Source of the DNA: an uncultured Actinomycetes bacterium
GTDB lineage: Bacteria; Actinomycetota; Thermoleophilia; UBA2241
Direction: 5' to 3'
Length of the DNA: 64,000 bases
NCBI GenBank assembly: GCA_963733255.1
Contig: CAVTCH010000019.1
Coordinates: 452,328 to 516,327 of the forward strand
A program made the position numbers and the translations under genes. Below are positions 38,713 through 47,158 of this stretch, one piece after another. How positions within the stretch are numbered: position 1 is the stretch's first letter; each line of letters begins with the position of its first letter. Under the pieces are notes generated by a model. The model was not told the origin of the DNA, did not search any database, and saw nothing but the letters and a program-made list of their open reading frames with translations.

Positions 38713-40440
38713 TCAGGAGTCGAAGGGCGGTGAGTGCGGCCCGGAGTCGACGGGCGGGGGCGGCCCCTCGTCGGCCTTGCGAGAGGCCAGCACGTCGGCT
38801 GCGCGCACGCCGAGATACACCTCCACTCGTCCGCCCATCGTCGAAAGATCGAGGCCCAGGACCTGCTCTATGCGCGCCAGGCGTTTGCGCAGCGTGTTGC
38901 GGTGCAGATACAGCCCGTCCGCCGTTTCGCTCACCGAGCAGCCGTGCGCCAGATAGGCGTGTAACGTAGCGTCGAGCTCAGAGCCGCGGCTATCGTCGGC
39001 GTCGCGCAGACGATCGACGACGCCCGCCTTCAGGCTGCGCAACGTTTCCCCAGACAGGCTGTCGAGGATCACGTACCGCCCGCCCATGTCCTCGAACACC
39101 GTCACGAACGATCCTGCGCTGCCGGCCGGCCCGTGCCGCAGCGCAAGCCGCGCTTGCCCGGCGGCACGCGGCACACTTTCGATGCCGGTCATCGACGCGG
39201 ACACGCCGATCGCGATCCCCGACAGGTTCATGCGGCCGGACAGCGCCGCCGCGATCTCATCAAAGAGACCTCGCGCCGCCGGCCCGGACACCGCGCCGGG
39301 AGTCGGACACAACACCAGCCCCTGGTCCGCATCCCAGTCGGCGAGGAACGGCAGGGCGCGCTCCCCGAACACCTCGTCGACACCGGCGAGCATCGTCTCG
39401 ACGAGCTCACCCGACGCGGGGCGGCCGCTCGACGGCGTCGTGACCGCAAGCGCGGCCACGCGCCATGGGGTGTTCGGCTCGATGCCGTGATACGAGAGAC
39501 GCTCGGCGAGCTCGGCCGAGTTGCCGCGCTGGTAGAGCAGCCGCTCGAGCAGGCCGGAACGAGTGCGGTGGATATCGCCGAACGCATGCCTGCCCGTGAG
39601 CTCGACCTCGAGAAGACGCTGCGCGAACGACAGCGACGCGTCGGCCAGCTCGGAGATGAGTCGCCCGGCCGGATAGGCGACGAGAAGGAGCTGCCGGACA
39701 CTCCCGGCACGGCGCACCTCGCGGAATCCGACGTAGCGATCGTCGAGCTCGAAGAAGGAGCGCGGCGCGCCCTGCTCCACGAGACGCCTGTACTCGCGCC
39801 AGGCCCGCGCGGCGAACTCGTCGTCGTCTGCCGACCCGCGGGCGGCGGACCACCGGGCCACGGTCGCGCCTCGGCGGTCGAGCACCGCGGCGTCGGCGTC
39901 GAGCAGCTCGGCCAGCCGGCGAACGAGAGCCTCGACACTCTGCTCGTCGAGAAGGGCTTCCACGAGATGCTGCTGCATCGCCACGCTGCGACGCAGGCGG
40001 TGCATGTCGCGCGAAGTGAACGCGTTGAAGACGTAGCTCGTGACCCGTCGGAACGGCGTCTCAGGGGGAACGCGAAGCACCGGCAGACCCTCGTCGTCGC
40101 CGGCAGCCAGCATCACGTCGGGGATGGCGCTCACGTTGGGCGTGATGGCGACCCCGACGCCGACCATGCCGCTGCGTTTGAGCAGGCGCACGAGCTCGGC
40201 CCCTGATTCGGGGTTGCCTTCGAGCCGCGGTCCGGTCGTGAGGACGACGCTTCCCTGCACCATCCAGGGAGTGGGATCGTCGAGGTCGCCGATGTAGACC
40301 GCTTCAATCGCCCGCGACAACCCGGCGTGCCCGGCGACGACCTCGAGGTGAAGGTCGCGCGCCTGCGCGAGCTCGGCGACCGTCAGACTCGCCTCGAGCG
40401 AGGAATGGTCGGGCGAGAGAGGTGAAGTGTGCGACTGCAT
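38713..40440 (-). CDS. PucR/CdaR-family transcriptional regulator
   Basis: C-terminal PucR HTH (LHAYLAHGCSVSETADGLYLHRNTLRKRLARIEQVLGLDL) and N-terminal PucR-type sensory domain. Confidence 0.8.
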   Translation of the reverse strand: MQSHTSPLSPDHSSLEASLTVAELAQARDLHLEVVAGHAGLSRAIEAVYIGDLDDPTPWMVQGSVVLTTGPRLEGNPESGAELVRLLKRSGMVGVGVAITPNVSAIPDVMLAAGDDEGLPVLRVPPETPFRRVTSYVFNAFTSRDMHRLRRSVAMQQHLVEALLDEQSVEALVRRLAELLDADAAVLDRRGATVARWSAARGSADDDEFAARAWREYRRLVEQGAPRSFFELDDRYVGFREVRRAGSVRQLLLVAYPAGRLISELADASLSFAQRLLEVELTGRHAFGDIHRTRSGLLERLLYQRGNSAELAERLSYHGIEPNTPWRVAALAVTTPSSGRPASGELVETMLAGVDEVFGERALPFLADWDADQGLVLCPTPGAVSGPAARGLFDEIAAALSGRMNLSGIAIGVSASMTGIESVPRAAGQARLALRHGPAGSAGSFVTVFEDMGGRYVILDSLSGETLRSLKAGVVDRLRDADDSRGSELDATLHAYLAHGCSVSETADGLYLHRNTLRKRLARIEQVLGLDLSTMGGRVEVYLGVRAADVLASRKADEGPPPPVDSGPHSPPFDS

Positions 40441-40491
40441 GGTGCAACACTACAGCGAAGTGCGCCGGCACACCCGCGATCACCGCCCACG

Positions 40492-40563
40492 GACGACAGT
40501 GGTCCGGCGGACGACAGTGGTCCGGCGGACGACAGTGGTCCGGCGGACGACAGTGGTCCGGCG
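40492..40563. repeat. 18-bp perfect tandem repeat x4 (GACGACAGTGGTCCGGCG) plus a degenerate 5th unit, intergenic
   Basis: Seen directly between the pucR start and the ADH stop. Confidence 0.85.
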
Positions 40564-40612
40564 GGCGCGACGACGCGGGGGGTAGCGCGCCGCGCCCGCC
40601 GGTGTGCCGGCG

Positions 40613-41776
40613 TCAGGCCGAATAGGCCTCCCGGAACAGCTTGAGGTAGTCCTCGTAACCGATCTCCCGGGCGTTGTCGGGCGAGCAGACGTGGTCTGCC
40701 GACAGGCGCGCCAAGGCTTCGAGGTCGTCGCTCGTGAGAGTCTCCAGCTCGCGCAATCCGGGCAGGCCGATCTGAGCGCTGAGGGCGCGGGTGGCCCCGA
40801 CCAGTGAACGCGCCGCTTCGGCGTCGGTCATGCCGGGCTTGCCGGCGCCCAGCGCCCGGGCGACGGCCGCGTGTCGGGCCGGGTCCGCTTCGAGGTTGAA
40901 CTCGAGCACGAACGGCAGGAAGACAGCACAGGCGACGCCGTGCGGCGTGCCGCGCAGGCCACCGAGGCTCTCCCCCATGCAGTGCACGGCGCCCACGTCG
41001 GCGTTCATGAACGCCATGCCGGCCAGCGTGCTCGCGAGGAGCATGTCACAGCGGGCGACGGTGTCGCCCCCGTCCTGGACCGCCGCCGGCAGCGCGTGGG
41101 CGATCAGTTCGATCGCTCGCAAGGCAAGAGCGTCGCTCACGGGGTTTGCCACCTGGCAGGTATACGCCTCGATGGCATGGACCAGGGCGTCAGCGCCGGT
41201 CGCGGCGGTCACGTTCGCCGGTAGCGATGCGGTGAGGTCGGGATCGACGATCGCCACGTCGGGGGCGATCCTCGGGTCGAGAAGGGTCATCTTGTAGCGG
41301 TGCTCTTCGTCGGTGATGACGGCGACCCACGTCACCTCGCTGCCGGTGCCCGCGGTCGTGGGCACGGCCAGCATGGGCAGCGGCTCCTTCTCGAGCTGCC
41401 GCGGGTCCTCCCAGTCCTTGACCCGGCCGCCGTTGGTCACGAGCGCCGCGGCCGCCTTGGCGGTGTCCAGGGCACTCCCCCCGCCCAGCCCGACGATGCC
41501 TTGCGCACCGAAGGCGACCGCGGCCGCCGCAGCGGCGCAGCACTCACGGTCGGATGGATTGGCGGAGACATCGCTGAAGACGGCCGACTCGACGCCCGCC
41601 TCACCGAGGGCCTCACGCGCTTTGTCGGCGAGGCCGGCGGCGACGATCCCAGGGTCGGTCACAAGCAGGACACGCTGACCCGCCAGAGCGCGCGCTTCGC
41701 CGCCCAGCTCCGCCAGCCTTCCCGCGCCAAAGACGATCCTGGTGCCGAGCTGATAGGTGAAACTCATGTCAGCCAT
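40613..41776 (-). CDS. Iron-containing alcohol dehydrogenase (lactaldehyde reductase/FucO-like)
   Basis: GGGSALDTAKAAA, AVPTTAGTGSEVT and His-rich metal site (HAIEAY..., HCMGESLGG). Confidence 0.85.
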   Translation of the reverse strand: MADMSFTYQLGTRIVFGAGRLAELGGEARALAGQRVLLVTDPGIVAAGLADKAREALGEAGVESAVFSDVSANPSDRECCAAAAAAVAFGAQGIVGLGGGSALDTAKAAAALVTNGGRVKDWEDPRQLEKEPLPMLAVPTTAGTGSEVTWVAVITDEEHRYKMTLLDPRIAPDVAIVDPDLTASLPANVTAATGADALVHAIEAYTCQVANPVSDALALRAIELIAHALPAAVQDGGDTVARCDMLLASTLAGMAFMNADVGAVHCMGESLGGLRGTPHGVACAVFLPFVLEFNLEADPARHAAVARALGAGKPGMTDAEAARSLVGATRALSAQIGLPGLRELETLTSDDLEALARLSADHVCSPDNAREIGYEDYLKLFREAYSA

Positions 41777-41857
41777 CTCCTCTGTCCTCCTTGCGAAGAC
41801 ACCTTTGCCGCACAGAGCCGGGCGAAGCGCGAAGTCAGACCGCGACCTCCCCCGCCG

Positions 41858-42793
41858 TCACGCCATGACGAGAGCGGCAACTGCCTTCTCGGTGTGCATG
41901 CGGTTCTCGCCCTGGTCCCAGAAGACGCAGTAGGGGCTTTCGATGACCTCGTCGACCATGTCCTCGCCGCGCGTGCCGGGCAGGCAGTGCATGTAGATCA
42001 CGTCGGGCTTGGCCATCTGGATGACGCGCATGTTGACCTGGTAGGGGGCGAAGTCCTTGACGCGCTGTTCCCTGTTCTCGGTGGCCATCGAGTGCCAGGT
42101 GTTGCCGTAGATCACGTCGGCGGCGGTGGCGACCTCTTCGAGATCCCTGGTGTAGACGATCTTCGACCCGCTGAGCCTGGCCCACTTCTGCGCGACGGCG
42201 AGCTGCTCGGCGTTCGGCTGATAGTCGTCGTTGGGCTGCGCCGCGTAGAAGTCCATGCCCGTCATGGCGCAGCCCATCATGAGCGAGTGGCAGACGTTCC
42301 AGATGTCGCCGAGATAGCCGACCTTGAGACCCTTGTAGGCGACCTTCTTCTCTTTGATCGTCATGAGGTCGCAGAGCCCCTGGCAGGGGTGCGTCTCGTT
42401 GGTCAGCGCGTTGATCACCGGGTTGCGCATGTACTGCGCAAACTCCTCGACGACCTCCTGGCCGAAGGTGCGGATGAACAGGCCCTCGCAGTAACGATCG
42501 ATGATGCGCGCCGTGTCGCGGATGGGCTCGCCACGACTGGTCTGCATCTGGTCGGGGCTCATGTAGAAGGTCTGGCCGCCGAGCTGAGCGATACCGGCCT
42601 GAAAGCTCAGGCGTGTGCGCGTCGACAGCTTCTCGAAGATCAGGGCCACGGTCTTTCCCTGCAGCGGCTGGTAGATCTCGCCCATGGCGCGCTTGCGCTT
42701 GAGCTCTATCGCGGTGTCCACCAGATAGCCGACTTCTTCGGGTGTGAAGTCGGCGAGCTTCAGGAAGTCTTTGCCCTTGAAATGATGCTGCAT
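41858..42793 (-). CDS. Ornithine carbamoyltransferase (catabolic type likely; could be another ATCase/OTCase-family transferase)
   Basis: STRTR, HPCQ and HCLP motifs. N-terminus MQHHFKGKDFLKLADFTPEE resembles E. coli ArgI/ArcB-like OTCases. GAGAGGAGAAG RBS. Confidence 0.85.
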   Translation of the reverse strand: MQHHFKGKDFLKLADFTPEEVGYLVDTAIELKRKRAMGEIYQPLQGKTVALIFEKLSTRTRLSFQAGIAQLGGQTFYMSPDQMQTSRGEPIRDTARIIDRYCEGLFIRTFGQEVVEEFAQYMRNPVINALTNETHPCQGLCDLMTIKEKKVAYKGLKVGYLGDIWNVCHSLMMGCAMTGMDFYAAQPNDDYQPNAEQLAVAQKWARLSGSKIVYTRDLEEVATAADVIYGNTWHSMATENREQRVKDFAPYQVNMRVIQMAKPDVIYMHCLPGTRGEDMVDEVIESPYCVFWDQGENRMHTEKAVAALVMA

Positions 42794-42985
42794 GTGCTTC
42801 TCCTCTCGATCAGCTCCAGCGGAGCTGCGTGCTTCGACCACGGCCATCACGGCAGACATCAGGGAATGCCACCCGCCGTCCCGACCCGCCGGGGATCAGG
42901 GGTCGCCGTCGCCTCCCTTGCCGCCTGCGGCCCGGCCGGGACCGGCCGACTTGCCGATCCCGGCCGGGCCGCGCGACAGCACCGT

Positions 42986-44458
42986 TCAGACGGGCTTCTC
43001 CAGACTTGCCAGCTCCCGATCGCTCTCTTCGATCGCCGCCCGCTCCGACGCGGGATCGAAGTTGCGCACCAGGATCAGGTAGACGATCGCGGTCACGACG
43101 GCGCCCACGATCCACGAGATGTCCACGCTGTTGATCTGCTTGGCCAGAGGCCCTGTGTAGTAGCTCTTCAGGGTGACCAGGTTGAGCAGCACCATGAAGG
43201 GGATCTCGGCGATGAAACCGGCGGCGTAGGCGATCAGGCCGTTGCGTGACCAGACTCCGTAGAGGCCGTGGGGCTTGAAGATCTCGATGATGGCGTAGTG
43301 CCCGCGGCGCACGAAGAAGAAGTCGATCAGGTTGGTCACCGTCCACGGCACCAGCAGGTAGAGCATGAGCGTGAGGACGGTATCGACGACGCCGACCGCG
43401 CTCGTGGAGATCAGCTTGGCGATCACGAACCAGATCACCGTCAGGCCCAGGATGGTGACCACCCTGGCTCCCCGGGTCGGGGTGACCTTGCGGAACGAGT
43501 CGACGCCGGCCAGGGTCGTCAGCATGCCGCCGTAGGCGTTCATGCCCATGGTCGCCGCCAGGGCGATCGCCGACAGAAGGGCCGTCACCGAACCGAGATA
43601 ACCGAACACGTTGTTGCCGGCCGTCTTCAAGCCGACCAGCCCGTCGGTCGCGCCCAGCCGGATCGCCAGCCAGGCGCCCAGCGCGATCAGCCAGATGGCC
43701 GGGGTCGCGGCGCCGGCGAACACGTAGCCGATGATCTTGCCCTTCGGCGTGTCGCGCGGCAGATAGCGCGAGTAGTCGGACACGTAGCCCGCGTAGGTGA
43801 TGTTGTAGGCCGCGGCGGCGGAGAACTGAGCCATGAAGCCGGTCCAGTTGAAGCCGTAGGGCGTGTGGCTCGTGACGTGGCCGGCGTGGCCGGTGAGCAC
43901 GGCGATCGAGATGATGGCCACGAGCGGCAGCAGGATGTACAGCAGCCATCTGAAGACGCGGTGCACCCAGTCGTGGCCGTAGATCGCCAGCAGAGCGGCG
44001 CCGACGGTCGCCACGACGGCGACCAGGTTGGCGTTCCAGCCGAACGTGCCGTGCAGCCCTTCGGAGAGAAGCACCTGGTCGGCGACGTTGAACGCCATGT
44101 AGGTGAACAGCACGGCAAACAGGGCGACGATGACTCCCCGGAACCCGAACTGGGCGCGCGACTGGATCATCTGAGGCAGCCCGAAGGTCGGGCCCTGGCT
44201 GGCGTGGAAGGCCATGAAGCAGGTGCCGACCAGGATGCCGGTCGTGCCGGCAAAGATCGTCCACCAGAGCGACAGGCCAAAGGCCGGCCCGATGAAACCG
44301 ATCGGGATGGTGAAGTACTGGAAGTTGCCCAGGAACCACAGAGGCGCCTGCTGCCAGGTCTTGCCGTGACGCTCGTTGTCCGGGATCCAGTCGATCGAGC
44401 GCACCTCAATGCCACGAATGCCGTTCGATGAGCGTGCGGGTTTGGTCTCAGTTGCCAT
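42986..44458 (-). CDS. NCS1-family nucleobase:cation symporter (cytosine/purine/hydantoin/allantoin permease type)
   Basis: 12-TMS protein with NCS1-like N-terminus (WIPDNERHGKTWQQAPLWFLGNFQ). AGGGGAG RBS. Confidence 0.85.
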   Translation of the reverse strand: MATETKPARSSNGIRGIEVRSIDWIPDNERHGKTWQQAPLWFLGNFQYFTIPIGFIGPAFGLSLWWTIFAGTTGILVGTCFMAFHASQGPTFGLPQMIQSRAQFGFRGVIVALFAVLFTYMAFNVADQVLLSEGLHGTFGWNANLVAVVATVGAALLAIYGHDWVHRVFRWLLYILLPLVAIISIAVLTGHAGHVTSHTPYGFNWTGFMAQFSAAAAYNITYAGYVSDYSRYLPRDTPKGKIIGYVFAGAATPAIWLIALGAWLAIRLGATDGLVGLKTAGNNVFGYLGSVTALLSAIALAATMGMNAYGGMLTTLAGVDSFRKVTPTRGARVVTILGLTVIWFVIAKLISTSAVGVVDTVLTLMLYLLVPWTVTNLIDFFFVRRGHYAIIEIFKPHGLYGVWSRNGLIAYAAGFIAEIPFMVLLNLVTLKSYYTGPLAKQINSVDISWIVGAVVTAIVYLILVRNFDPASERAAIEESDRELASLEKPV

Positions 44459-44510
44459 GGCAAGCTCCCCTATCGCTTGTCGCAAAGGACTGTTGCGCGC
44501 TGGGCACCGT

Positions 44511-45395
44511 CTAGTTCCTTTCTGTAGAGGACGACGAACCGGTCAACGCCGTCGCCGGCGCGCTGACTGCTGCGTAGAGTTCCGGTCGGCGATCTCGCAG
44601 TTGCGAGCCATAACCCGCTCTTGCCTCGTCGGTGCGATCGTGGTCGATCGTGGCGACCAGCAGTCCGTCGGGCTCGTCGCCGAGGCCGGTCACCGGGCGG
44701 CCGAGACAGTCGACCACGCGGGAGTGACCCGAGAACCGCGCCTCACCGTCGACGCCGCAGCGGTTGACCGCGATCATGGGAGTGACGTTGTCGTAGGCGC
44801 GGGCCGCGACGGCGAGGTCCCAGTCCTCGACGTAGGGATCCTCCCAGGCGCCGATCGTCACCAGAAGGTCGGCTCCGGCAAGGGCGTGCGTGCGCGCGAC
44901 CTCAGGAAAGGCCGCGTCCCAGCAGATCATCACGCCGAGCCGACCGATCGACGTGGCGATGCTCGCCAGATCGTCGCCGTTCGCAAAGAAGCGACGCTCG
45001 CTCTCGAGACAGTGAGTCTTGCGATACGAGGCGATCGGCCGGCCGTTGCGCTCGAACACGGCCGCCGAGTCGTAGATGAGCCCGGAGGTGGCGGAGGCCT
45101 CCGCATAGCCCGCGACGAGCACGACATCAAGCTCCGCGGCGAGGCTCGCCAGGCGCCGCAAGCTCTCGCCCTCGGGCCAGCGTTCTGCCAGCGAGCTGAA
45201 CGCCCGACCGGCCGAGTACCCCGTCACGCCCAGCTCCGGGACCACGAGAAGGTCGAGCTGCGGATGCTCCGCCTTCATCGTCCGGCCCAGACGCTCGATC
45301 TTCGAGACGTTCGCGGCCGGATCGCCGGTGATCGACACGAGCTGCAGACCACCGGTCACGATGGCGGATGGGCGCGATCGCGGCATCGCGCTCAC
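44511..45395 (-). CDS. Carbon-nitrogen hydrolase (nitrilase superfamily; N-carbamoyl amidohydrolase-like)
   Basis: E-K-C triad context (VVPELGVTGY, YRKTHC, GVMICWD). Confidence 0.8.
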   Translation of the reverse strand: MSAMPRSRPSAIVTGGLQLVSITGDPAANVSKIERLGRTMKAEHPQLDLLVVPELGVTGYSAGRAFSSLAERWPEGESLRRLASLAAELDVVLVAGYAEASATSGLIYDSAAVFERNGRPIASYRKTHCLESERRFFANGDDLASIATSIGRLGVMICWDAAFPEVARTHALAGADLLVTIGAWEDPYVEDWDLAVAARAYDNVTPMIAVNRCGVDGEARFSGHSRVVDCLGRPVTGLGDEPDGLLVATIDHDRTDEARAGYGSQLRDRRPELYAAVSAPATALTGSSSSTERN

Positions 45396-45398
45396 GAC

Positions 45399-46256
45399 TC
45401 AGGCGTCTCGCAGAAGCGGGAAGGTCATGCAGTGCGGACCGCCACCGCCTTTGAGGATCTCCGTGATCTCGGGGGCGATGACACTCAGGCCCAGTGCCCG
45501 GAGTCTCTCGTTGACAGCCGAGTTGCCGGCAAAGGTCAGCACCCGATCGTCACCGAGCGCCTGGATGTTGCAGTGGTGCTTGAGAACGCCGGCGCTGGGC
45601 ACCTCGATCAGCTCGAACCCGCGCTTGCGCAACATGCGCAGGAAGTGCTCGGGCATCTGCTCGACCGCGCAGACGGCGACGCCGGGTGCGACGATGTTGA
45701 ACGCCATGTCCAGGTGCAGGTTCTTCGACGGGATCTGGATGCCGGTGACCGTGTAGCCCAGCGGTTCCAGGATCTCGGCGGCGTTGCGCAACCCTTCCCA
45801 GTCGGTGCGAGCCGCGATGCCGTGCACGATGGTGGACTCATCGAGCAGCCAGAAATCGCCGCCTTCGAAGGTCCCCCGGCTCACCTTGCCGACGACGGGT
45901 ATGCCGAGCTCGCGGATCTTCTTCAGGTAGTGAAGGTCCTCGCCCTGGCGGATGGGCTCCCGGAAACTGCCGATCAACGCCCCCTCGGCGACACAGACGC
46001 CGAAGTCCCGGGCGTAGACCATGTACGGCAGCTCGGGATCGGGCTCGATGAGCACGACCTCGACTCCGGCGTCGCCGTACGCCTGGACGAGCTCGGCATG
46101 CTCGCGACGGAAGGCCGCCTCGTCGGGTCGCTCACCACGCGCCAGCACACCCCGCGTGATCTCGTTGATGGGCTGGAAGTTGAAGAACTCCGGTGGGCAA
46201 AGGAGCACCCTGCGAAGCTTGCCCGTCGCGTTTTGCACGTATCGCTGATCGGCCAT
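45399..46256 (-). CDS. Amidinotransferase-superfamily hydrolase (DDAH / arginine-deiminase / agmatine-deiminase-like)
   Basis: C-terminal GGGGPHCMT catalytic-Cys motif. About 285 aa. GGGAGGAG RBS. Confidence 0.6.
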   Translation of the reverse strand: MADQRYVQNATGKLRRVLLCPPEFFNFQPINEITRGVLARGERPDEAAFRREHAELVQAYGDAGVEVVLIEPDPELPYMVYARDFGVCVAEGALIGSFREPIRQGEDLHYLKKIRELGIPVVGKVSRGTFEGGDFWLLDESTIVHGIAARTDWEGLRNAAEILEPLGYTVTGIQIPSKNLHLDMAFNIVAPGVAVCAVEQMPEHFLRMLRKRGFELIEVPSAGVLKHHCNIQALGDDRVLTFAGNSAVNERLRALGLSVIAPEITEILKGGGGPHCMTFPLLRDA

Positions 46257-46414
46257 CTGCGTGTGCTCCTCCCTCGAAACAAGAGTGTGAGGAGAACGTA
46301 TGCACTGCGCCGACACCGAAGAAGTGGACTCGCGCACAGGATGTGTGGCTGCCGAGGTGCGCGCGCACACTCGTCTCGCGTGGTCTTTGGACCACGCTTC
46401 CGGGGCCGAGACAC

Positions 46415-47158
46415 CTATACCCAGACGATCAGCACCTGCTTCATCGCCTGGACGTAGGGGTGGTCGGCGCAATCGACCGACACCAGGCGCAGCCGCAGAT
46501 CGAGGTCGGCGTACTCGGCATGCCCCGCCTGGATCAGGAGGCGCTTGGCCTTGCGATCGTAGTACGGCTCAGGCGGCGCTGCCGTGGTCTTGCCGGCTTC
46601 GAGCAGGGGTTCGATGCTCGTCGCCCTTCTGAGGCCGAGCCCGTGGGAGAGACGGTCGCTTCGAGTGGCGTAGGTCCACTTGCCTTCCGCGGTCTCCGTC
46701 ACCTGAAGAAAGACGGTGTAGCCGTCGACCGTGACCATGTGGGTCTGGCGTCGCGCGTACCGCCGCCGGGGATCGGTGTAGCGCCGGCAGGCGCAGAGGG
46801 CGTTGATCCTGCGGTTGTCCAGGATATCGGCTCTTCCGACCTGCGCCAGGATGTCCTGCGTGAGGCGGCGGTCCCAGTCGGGCCTGGTCTCGAGGCTCGC
46901 CTCGACCAGGAGCTCGTCGACGAGGCTGAGCGACAGGAGCTCCTGCCCGTTCGGCAGGAGCCCACAGATGAGCTCGGTGATGGGGCAGGTGTCGTTTGCG
47001 ATGAGGTCGAGCACCGCGGCATACGGGGGCACGAGGAAGTGGTCTCCTCGCTCTCGCGCCTGAGCGATCCGCTGGTTCACGTCGGCGACCAGCCTGCGGC
47101 GCAGGTCCGGCCGGAGATCGCCCATCTGCATGTCTGAGCGTTTCATCGCTTCGGTCAT
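46415..47158 (-). CDS. Hypothetical protein (248 aa)
   Basis: GGAGAGAG RBS. No domain recognised. Confidence 0.4.
   Translation of the reverse strand: MTEAMKRSDMQMGDLRPDLRRRLVADVNQRIAQARERGDHFLVPPYAAVLDLIANDTCPITELICGLLPNGQELLSLSLVDELLVEASLETRPDWDRRLTQDILAQVGRADILDNRRINALCACRRYTDPRRRYARRQTHMVTVDGYTVFLQVTETAEGKWTYATRSDRLSHGLGLRRATSIEPLLEAGKTTAAPPEPYYDRKAKRLLIQAGHAEYADLDLRLRLVSVDCADHPYVQAMKQVLIVWV

Follow-up and report, generated by a model that had tools for sequence, protein, structure and literature searches.

A candidate actinobacterial operon for guanidino carboxylic acid catabolism combines a DDAH-like deiminase with a non-canonical transcarbamylase

In the arginine deiminase pathway (ArcA/ArcB/ArcC/ArcD) a pentein-fold cysteine hydrolase converts a guanidino into a ureido group, and an enzyme of the ornithine transcarbamylase (OTC) family then phosphorolyzes the product. 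In the agmatine pathways the deiminase AguA is followed either by putrescine transcarbamylase (PTC; the AguA-PTC-CK-AguD route, CK being carbamate kinase) or by a nitrilase-superfamily N-carbamoyl amidohydrolase (the AguA-AguB route). The guanidino acid 4-guanidinobutyrate is converted into γ-aminobutyrate (GABA) and urea by guanidinobutyrase, a ureohydrolase of the arginase fold. Here we describe a gene cluster in a stretch of 64,000 nucleotides (nt; the window) of contig CAVTCH010000019.1 (assembly GCA_963733255.1), which encodes a pentein-fold enzyme (in the following the deiminase), an OTC-family transcarbamylase and a nitrilase-superfamily CN-hydrolase side by side. With moderate confidence we read it as a catabolic operon under PucR control that serves to degrade a guanidino carboxylic acid without the α-ammonium group of arginine, our leading guess for the substrate being 4-guanidinobutyrate.

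The window has a G+C content of ~70% and belongs to a genome of 3.1 Mb with a completeness of 95%. The unit consists of five genes plus pucR, in the order of transcription:

45399..46256, minus strand: pentein-fold guanidino-group hydrolase of the DDAH/ADI superfamily, Tyr type, 285 aa (Pfam DDAH_eukar, ADI)
44511..45395, minus strand: CN-hydrolase of the nitrilase superfamily, 294 aa (Pfam CN_hydrolase, 173 bits)
42986..44458, minus strand: divergent NCS1-family permease, 490 aa (Pfam Transp_cyt_pur, PF02133, 122.7 bits)
41858..42793, minus strand: OTC-family transcarbamylase, 311 aa (Pfam OTCace_N, OTCace)
40613..41776, minus strand: iron-type (group III) alcohol dehydrogenase (Fe-ADH), 387 aa (Pfam Fe-ADH, ADH_Fe_C)
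38713..40440, minus strand: PucR-family transcriptional regulator, final gene of the unit, 575 aa (Pfam PucR, GGDEF_2, HTH_30)

From the deiminase gene to pucR the intergenic gaps measure 3, 52, 192, 81 and 172 nt. The CN-hydrolase thus starts 3 nt past the deiminase stop, and the ATG of the NCS1 gene, 52 nt beyond the CN-hydrolase stop, is preceded by GGGGAG. The transcarbamylase reading frame extends open to 42859; its orthologues are 311–312 aa long. The deiminase begins with MADQRY, and an identical 285-aa protein is already on record. The original prediction had listed six co-directional minus-strand genes with short gaps between positions 40613 and 47158. All six are present and closely spaced, but the open reading frame (ORF) at 46415-47158 does not belong to the unit, which is instead completed by pucR just outside that interval. 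The arrangement is not due to chance, as related genomes have these genes together as well, in permuted order. The nearest relatives of the cluster are found in uncultured Thermoleophilia and other Actinomycetota from soil and sediment. Among the sequencing runs listed for the region, it is present in DNA runs only, namely soil and freshwater-sediment metagenomes from a single study; no RNA runs are listed.

No NCBIfam equivalog comes near its cut-off with the deiminase. Its best-scoring NCBIfam models are those for DDAH, all of them below cut-off (86, 70 and 55 bits versus 300, 340 and 450), while the arcA model TIGR01078 gives 58.6 versus a cut-off of 489 and the ArgZ-domain model NF052232 gives 60 versus 450. 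At 285 aa the protein is shorter than ArcA with its ~410 aa. Its AlphaFold model (predicted local distance difference test, pLDDT, of 90.7) superposes about equally well on DDAH, the N-terminal domain of ArgZ/AgrE, NnhA and AGAT/amidinotransferases at ~22% identity, and Foldseek matched it to DDAH with an E-value of ~1e-17. With the DDAHs from Pseudomonas aeruginosa (PA1195) and human (DDAH1) it shares the fold (template modeling, TM, score 0.76–0.87), the catalytic Cys and His, the guanidine-clamp Asp and two carboxylate-binding Arg. Identity to these enzymes is only ~22–24%, and unlike DDAH the deiminase is genomically tied to a transcarbamylase. The closest structural superposition is with the N-terminal domain of ArgZ/AgrE, which is of similar size (root mean square deviation ~2.5 Å, TM 0.82–0.86). 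ArgZ, however, carries Asn (TAN) where the window enzyme has the clamp Asp (ARD), and it leads directly to ornithine without need of a transcarbamylase.

Alignment to P. aeruginosa DDAH showed that Asp66, Arg85, Arg132, His162 and Cys249 are all retained, while Asp60 is replaced by Tyr78 (LPYMVYARD). Transferred to human DDAH1 by a constant numbering offset, the retained residues correspond to Asp79, Arg98, Arg145, His173 and Cys274, and the residue replaced by Tyr is Asp73. In human DDAH1, Asp79 clamps the guanidine, Arg98 and Arg145 bind the carboxylate and Asp73 binds the α-amino group (PMC10958460). Across 78 members of the deiminase family R83, D84, R103, E131, R150, H181, D183 and C276 are invariant, whereas the position equivalent to Asp73 is occupied by Y, V, I, N, L or H and in no case by D. 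On these scores and residues we regard the enzyme as neither a DDAH nor an ADI. It would be a single-step hydrolase for the guanidino group of a molecule that has a carboxylate and lacks an α-ammonium group. Both guanidine-clamp Asp residues (ARD, HLD) are kept, so the target is most likely a guanidino group and not a ureido compound such as citrulline. In this respect it differs from the putative citrullinase CtlX, likewise a short ADI-superfamily hydrolase of arginine-related catabolism that was found via genomic context, which has Asn at both guanidine positions (FPNN, HTN) where the window enzyme has Asp (YARD, HLD) (PMC9007349). The C-terminus GGGGPHCMT, originally noted for this enzyme of the amidinotransferase superfamily, is as it was read.

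The transcarbamylase shows a corresponding change. It scores 356.6 bits with the OTC model TIGR00658, above the cut-off of 280.85, so an automatic OTC label is to be expected; its nearest solved relative is the OTC of Pyrococcus. The carbamoyl-phosphate site is intact (STRTR, HPCQ and HCLP, the latter as HCLPGTRG), which bears out the canonical motifs named in the original prediction, and the Lys of FxKxSxRT is kept (FEKLSTRTR). The second-substrate loop, in contrast, reads NTWHSMA where OTC has DxxxSMG, and GDIWN stands in place of GDxNN. Most of the OTC-like contacts for a linear carboxylate substrate are retained. The motif DxxxSMG has been used to define OTC, and D231 in OTC and D227 in PTC are listed as direct binders of the second substrate (PMC4581275). 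The equivalent of both residues is Asn in the window enzyme, and with the Asp of DxxxSMG replaced it lies outside that definition; by its motifs it is not a canonical OTC. Nor does it resemble PTC, whose markers are Gln in FxQxSxRT, a (Y/W)(G/W)(V/L/I) 230-loop and ~20 extra C-terminal residues (PMC4581275). All of these are missing: Lys stands in place of Gln, there is no YGLY loop, the protein has 311 aa compared with 348 in the PTC of Levilactobacillus, and the PTC model TIGR04384 yields 262 versus a cut-off of 500.

Phylogeny of the OTC family, which the original prediction had named as a check, gave the same picture. In a maximum-likelihood tree the window enzyme and 39 of 42 deiminase-linked transcarbamylases form one clade of 40 rows (support 91/96), separate from the clade of canonical OTCs (100/99), from the OTC of the source genome itself and from PTC. 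That canonical OTC is encoded elsewhere in the genome, carries DTFTSMG and scores 414.8 bits, so the orthology to housekeeping argF that would have spoken against a dedicated pathway was not found. The source genome holds a third OTC-family paralogue (C13:117544-118455) with neither HPxQ nor SMG, whose best model is PTC at 302 bits versus 500.

The pair of deiminase and transcarbamylase is conserved across phyla. A scan of species-representative genomes returned 241 stretches encoding a deiminase relative, of which 80 loci were fetched for neighbourhood counts. An OTC-family gene lies near the deiminase gene in 47 of these and a carbamate kinase gene in 27. In Atlantibacter, Serratia, Scandinavium and Pseudomonas lundensis the block consists of a LysR regulator, transcarbamylase, APC permease, deiminase, carbamate kinase and an SSF carrier, and in Klebsiella, Paenibacillus, Enterococcaceae and many Clostridia of transcarbamylase, a DcuC-type carrier, deiminase, D-2-hydroxyacid dehydrogenase, carbamate kinase, SSF and PucR. 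The substituted residues travel together: of 24 loci with a Tyr-type deiminase, 23 have Asn in the loop of the transcarbamylase, and of 17 with a Val/Ile/Leu-type deiminase, 13 have Met there, counts that include kin, are thus not independent and are to be read not as a statistic but as co-inheritance of what appear to be matched active sites. Carriers of the pair can also hold the described pathways. P. lundensis and Levilactobacillus mulengensis both encode a canonical arcA (scores 525–539) beside a canonical OTC, and Levilactobacillus carries a PTC as well, with the loop DVWYGLY and Gln in FxQxSxRT. The deiminase-transcarbamylase pair is therefore a third system and not a replacement.

These observations bear on whether the cluster could serve ordinary catabolism of arginine, citrulline or methylarginine, with a short ADI or DDAH forming citrulline, a catabolic OTC releasing ornithine and carbamoyl phosphate, and the CN-hydrolase acting as a citrullinase like Francisella Ctu. 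The family scores of both enzymes lean this way, as the transcarbamylase passes the OTC cut-off and has an OTC as best solved relative while the deiminase scores best with DDAH models; the Francisella citrulline ureidase is indeed a CN-hydrolase (PMC9007349), and no canonical arcA was found in the source genome. Nevertheless, we consider this explanation quite unlikely, given that the Asp predicted to bind the α-amino group is replaced in both enzymes, that the DxxxSMG motif is lost, that the transcarbamylase groups apart from OTCs in a genome with a canonical OTC elsewhere, and that P. lundensis and L. mulengensis keep a full canonical arcA-OTC set in addition to the cluster. With respect to the arginine deiminase pathway, the chemistry of a pentein Cys hydrolase followed by OTC-family phosphorolysis would be shared, and many relatives add a carbamate kinase and an exchanger; what differs is the 285-aa deiminase, the disappearance of the presumed α-ammonium Asp from both enzymes, the separate transcarbamylase clade and, in the window, a CN-hydrolase, an NCS1 permease and an Fe-ADH in place of carbamate kinase. 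The earlier proposal of a non-canonical guanidino/ureido cluster with both a carbamoyltransferase and an amidohydrolase route is thereby upheld, whereas the substrates it suggested (arginine, citrulline, methylarginine, agmatine) are disfavoured by the loss of the acidic residue presumed to pair with the ammonium group in both key enzymes, together with retention of the carboxylate binders. Its observations are confirmed, and its interpretation as a whole is partly supported.

We propose the following route. The NCS1 permease would import the substrate or a precursor, and the 285-aa pentein enzyme would hydrolyze the guanidino group to a ureido group and ammonia by a Cys-His covalent mechanism as in DDAH and ADI. 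The transcarbamylase would then phosphorolyze the ureido acid to an omega-amino acid and carbamoyl phosphate, while the AguB-like CN-hydrolase may cleave the same ureido acid irreversibly to the amine, CO2 and ammonia or, less likely, provide the guanidino acid from an amide precursor. The Fe-ADH would catalyze a downstream aldehyde or alcohol step, for example after transamination of the amino acid. Compared with guanidinobutyrase the substrate class and the resulting amino acid would be the same, but the enzyme belongs to another superfamily and ammonia plus carbamoyl phosphate would be released instead of urea. Other omega-guanidino acids, 2-oxo or 2-hydroxy analogues of arginine (2-oxoarginine, argininic acid) or cyclic precursors entering via NCS1 are possible substrates as well. 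Circumstantial support for 4-guanidinobutyrate comes from 4-ureidobutyrate, a stool metabolite that declines after antibiotic treatment and has no assigned origin (PMC11543857). In open-access papers we found no description of a guanidino-acid deiminase, of a cluster of DDAH and carbamate kinase or of a ureidobutyrate transcarbamylase.

The CN-hydrolase contains the blocks PEL, YRKTH and ICWD, which by motif fit the Glu-Lys-Cys triad that had been recognized from the sequence. Its best NCBIfam model is AguB (TIGR03381; 130 bits versus a cut-off of 410), N-carbamoylputrescine amidohydrolase is among its nearest solved structures, and aliphatic amidases or formamidases are more distant from it than N-carbamoylputrescine amidase. 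Orthologues with 62–72% identity occur in seven other genomes of the order, in all of them directly after the deiminase gene and, in the fetched loci, always accompanied by an NCS1 gene. We assign the enzyme with moderate confidence to a hydrolytic route from the ureido acid, the alternative being an upstream amidase reaction that turns an amide into the guanidino acid.

The AguB-like enzyme also raises the question of an agmatine pathway in a new guise, in which the DDAH-fold enzyme would be an analogue of agmatine deiminase, the transcarbamylase a PTC and the CN-hydrolase AguB, with the Fe-ADH following putrescine oxidation. Like the agmatine pathways, the window combines a deiminase with a transcarbamylase and an N-carbamoyl amidohydrolase candidate, here both in one cluster, and beyond the AguB score and the solved N-carbamoylputrescine amidohydrolase, clostridial relatives of the deiminase adjoin a PotABCD-like polyamine-type importer and a class-III aminotransferase. 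AguA, however, belongs to PF04371 and not to the DDAH/ADI Pfam families. The AguB model stays below its cut-off and the PTC model likewise, all PTC markers are missing, and Asn takes the place of Asp227. The deiminase keeps both Arg residues that bind the carboxylate in DDAH, and Levilactobacillus and Listeria aquatica have a PTC-type gene in addition to the pair. Taken together, an agmatine variant appears improbable.

Carbamate kinase was found neither in the window, as the original prediction had stated, nor in the 95%-complete source genome with a protein query and the arcC model, whereas within the order 81 of 89 genomes encode it. We considered that the CN-hydrolase substitutes for the kinase and rejected this at the level of whole genomes: seven other genomes have a CN-hydrolase orthologue next to the deiminase gene, and at least six of them encode the kinase somewhere (the match in G014 is partial). 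Within a fetched locus the two genes never occur together. In this genome the main role of the transcarbamylase may be to provide carbamoyl phosphate for biosynthesis; alternatively, the 5% missing from the assembly may contain the kinase gene.

A missing kinase would also fit a transcarbamylase that works in the direction of synthesis and makes a ureido compound for a secondary metabolite, with its neighbours unrelated. DPTCase and DBTCase, OTC-family enzymes in which the Asp is replaced, act in antibiotic biosynthesis (PMC4581275). We judge such a role highly improbable here: there are no nonribosomal peptide synthetase, polyketide synthase or tailoring genes nearby, in 27 loci carbamate kinase and exchanger-type carriers accompany the pair, and the hydrolytic deiminase reaction is irreversible and would feed the same ureido compound.

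The remaining genes of the unit are less informative about the substrate. The NCS1 permease reaches 58 bits with the subfamily model TIGR00800, whose cut-off is 353, and the sequence search returned no solved relative. For the Fe-ADH no NCBIfam equivalog reached its cut-off; the nearest solved structures are methanol, 1,3-propanediol and lactaldehyde oxidoreductases. An assignment as 4-hydroxybutyrate dehydrogenase was rejected, as this model gives 259 bits versus a cut-off of 500 and is outranked by several other equivalogs. Orthologues of the Fe-ADH with 69–78% identity lie inside the cluster in three loci (L008, L010 and L014); in the window, L010 and L014 the Fe-ADH gene adjoins that of the transcarbamylase, with the two blocks permuted. 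A PucR gene stands beside the deiminase-transcarbamylase pair in many related loci. The family includes GabR of Corynebacterium glutamicum (PMC7652997). We discarded PucR as a clue to GABA, as the family regulates many pathways and is not discriminating.

Carrier and regulator could also be taken as signs of a cyclic or purine-derived guanidino or ureido substrate, such as a guanidino-hydantoin or a creatinine-like ring, entering via NCS1. The pentein enzyme and the CN-hydrolase would then act on intermediates derived from the ring, with a terminal carbamoyl group left for the transcarbamylase to take off. Hydantoins, allantoin and nucleobases are established substrates of NCS1 carriers. The family is known for cyclic ureides and not for guanidino acids, which also counts against our preferred reading. 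PucR is named for purine catabolism, and in the closest relatives the cluster also includes a 'cyclase'-type amidohydrolase (PF04199) and another permease. In the closest of them, L007, the cluster comprises deiminase, CN-hydrolase, NCS1, the PF04199 cyclase-type hydrolase, an APC permease, a 332-aa protein, transcarbamylase and PucR. The cluster in the window itself, however, has no hydantoinase, allantoinase or other ring-opening enzyme, in other phyla the conserved core comes with APC or DcuC carriers and not with NCS1, and the transcarbamylase retains most OTC-like contacts for a linear carboxylate. A cyclic substrate thus seems unlikely.

Besides the known range of NCS1 carriers, several further points weigh against a linear guanidino acid such as 4-guanidinobutyrate. 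The substrate is deduced from a handful of residues. The Arg residues to which we assign carboxylate binding do not vary anywhere in the family and could have a structural role. That Asp231 of OTC pairs specifically with the α-ammonium group is our presumption from structures of OTC with the inhibitor N-(phosphonoacetyl)-ornithine (PALO). For this residue, the comparison in PMC4581275 lists ornithine binding only. A transcarbamylase and an N-carbamoyl hydrolase in the same operon are partly redundant. Phosphorolysis of ureido compounds is thermodynamically unfavourable without carbamate kinase, and since none was found in the source genome the direction of the transcarbamylase there is uncertain. 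The cluster contains no aminotransferase or aldehyde dehydrogenase for GABA, which leaves the Fe-ADH without a clear substrate. Finally, an oxidoreductase recurs in three unrelated forms (Fe-ADH, zinc-type alcohol dehydrogenase (Zn-ADH) and D-2-hydroxyacid dehydrogenase). This would be a hint that the substrate carries a hydroxy or oxo group, and plain 4-guanidinobutyrate has neither; the Tyr of the deiminase and the Asn of the transcarbamylase could form a hydrogen bond to a 2-hydroxy or 2-oxo group.

Within the order the deiminase is an accessory trait, present in 29 of 89 genomes and in 10 of the 32 of high quality. In other Thermoleophilia loci a carbamate kinase and a Zn-ADH are present, and the CN-hydrolase/NCS1 module is missing. 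Outside Actinomycetota, a Bacillota metagenome-assembled genome (L029) encodes the deiminase with PucR, an M20 amidohydrolase, a CN-hydrolase, an Fe-ADH and an NMT1-type binding protein, with no transcarbamylase; the Fe-ADH is a distant relative that overlaps the CN-hydrolase stop. The pairing of CN-hydrolase and Fe-ADH therefore recurs beyond the Actinomycetota. In Val/Ile-type relatives (L055, L062, L074 and 13 more loci) the neighbours of the deiminase always include a DcuC-type carrier and a D-2-hydroxyacid dehydrogenase. The transcarbamylase of these loci carries MSHYSMG or a close variant in most cases, and in L064 and L068 the enzyme belongs to the OTC clade and has NVWAAMH. Klebsiella, Paenibacillus, Enterococcaceae and Clostridia seem to have a pathway variant of their own here. 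In Clostridium tyrobutyricum (L041) and in L037 a Tyr-type deiminase stands beside the PotABCD-like ABC importer, PucR and the class-III aminotransferase with no transcarbamylase nearby, and clostridial Asn-type relatives likewise have none.

Two further observations concern the history of the pair. The clusters of Serratia quinivorans (L031) and P. lundensis (L035) share 83–88% DNA identity over more than 10 kb, which points to recent horizontal transfer between orders. In Listeria aquatica (L078, L090 and L095) the deiminase and its linked transcarbamylase look truncated or interrupted, with split ORFs and an in-frame TAA, as might be expected of a copy in decay. In this species the PTC-type gene (L090), with the DVWYGLY loop and Gln in FxQxSxRT, also looks split.

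Three additional features flank or interrupt the unit:

46415..47158, minus strand: orphan conserved hypothetical gene outside the unit, 247 aa (G+C at third codon positions, GC3, 0.87)
46257..46420, minus strand: upstream region of the operon with a Shine-Dalgarno sequence, conserved blocks and a private palindrome (alignment of six upstream regions)
40490..40564, no strand: tandem repeat of 18 bp × 4.2 (Tandem Repeats Finder)

The upstream region contains the strong Shine-Dalgarno sequence GGGAGGAG ahead of the deiminase gene and blocks that are kept in five relatives (GGTGTnC..GCACC, GGTGCA..GTCCACTT and ATACGTTC). As these elements separate the ORF at 46415-47158 from the deiminase gene, the operon most likely starts with the latter. 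A perfect palindrome at 46378-46397, GCGTGGTC-CAAA-GACCACGC (GTGGTC-N4-GACCAC), lies about 120–140 nt upstream of the deiminase start. It was absent from every related locus checked, and its near-matches in the window are at chance level; we thus rejected it as a conserved operon element. A promoter and terminator scan gave no signal above shuffles. Between the Fe-ADH stop and the pucR start, the tandem repeat has the unit CGGACGACAGTGGTCCGG (period 18, 100% matches, score 150), each copy of which contains a short inverted repeat. It may be an array of regulator sites or a transcript-end, terminator-like structure.

The ORF at 46415-47158 is a real orphan gene unrelated to the unit. Besides its GC3, it shows the codon-position G+C pattern of a true gene, and it has 12 homologues with 68–89% identity in related actinobacteria. 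These stand in unrelated neighbourhoods, twice beside a YkuD-domain gene (two copies of one homologue). It had no match in Pfam, NCBIfam or Atlas, and no counterpart was found in the related clusters.

Tentatively, and with somewhat less assurance than we attach to the operon in the window, the 285-aa pentein enzymes and the OTC-like proteins linked to them may be two uncharacterized families. Together they would define several guanidino-acid deiminase pathways that exist in parallel, of the Tyr/Asn, Val/Met and Leu/Met types, and each type would have a carrier and an oxidoreductase of its own. These pathways would make up a third class beside the arginine and agmatine pathways, yield adenosine triphosphate (ATP) via carbamate kinase in gut and fermentative bacteria and be a source of metabolites such as 4-ureidobutyrate, and the window would represent a soil-actinobacterial form with a hydrolytic bypass. 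If confirmed, this would add one new deiminase and one new carbamoyltransferase activity, and the paired active-site substitutions would be a natural example of how folds are retuned for new substrates. Cultured carriers exist in Serratia quinivorans, Pseudomonas lundensis, Atlantibacter subterraneus, Klebsiella indica, Slackia exigua and Clostridium tyrobutyricum. In source databases members of the deiminase family go under "DDAH" and, in a few records, under "nitrate reductase". With these names and the OTC label expected for the transcarbamylase, metabolic reconstructions for carriers from soil, gut and food would get arginine metabolism wrong and overlook a catabolic route that possibly yields ATP.

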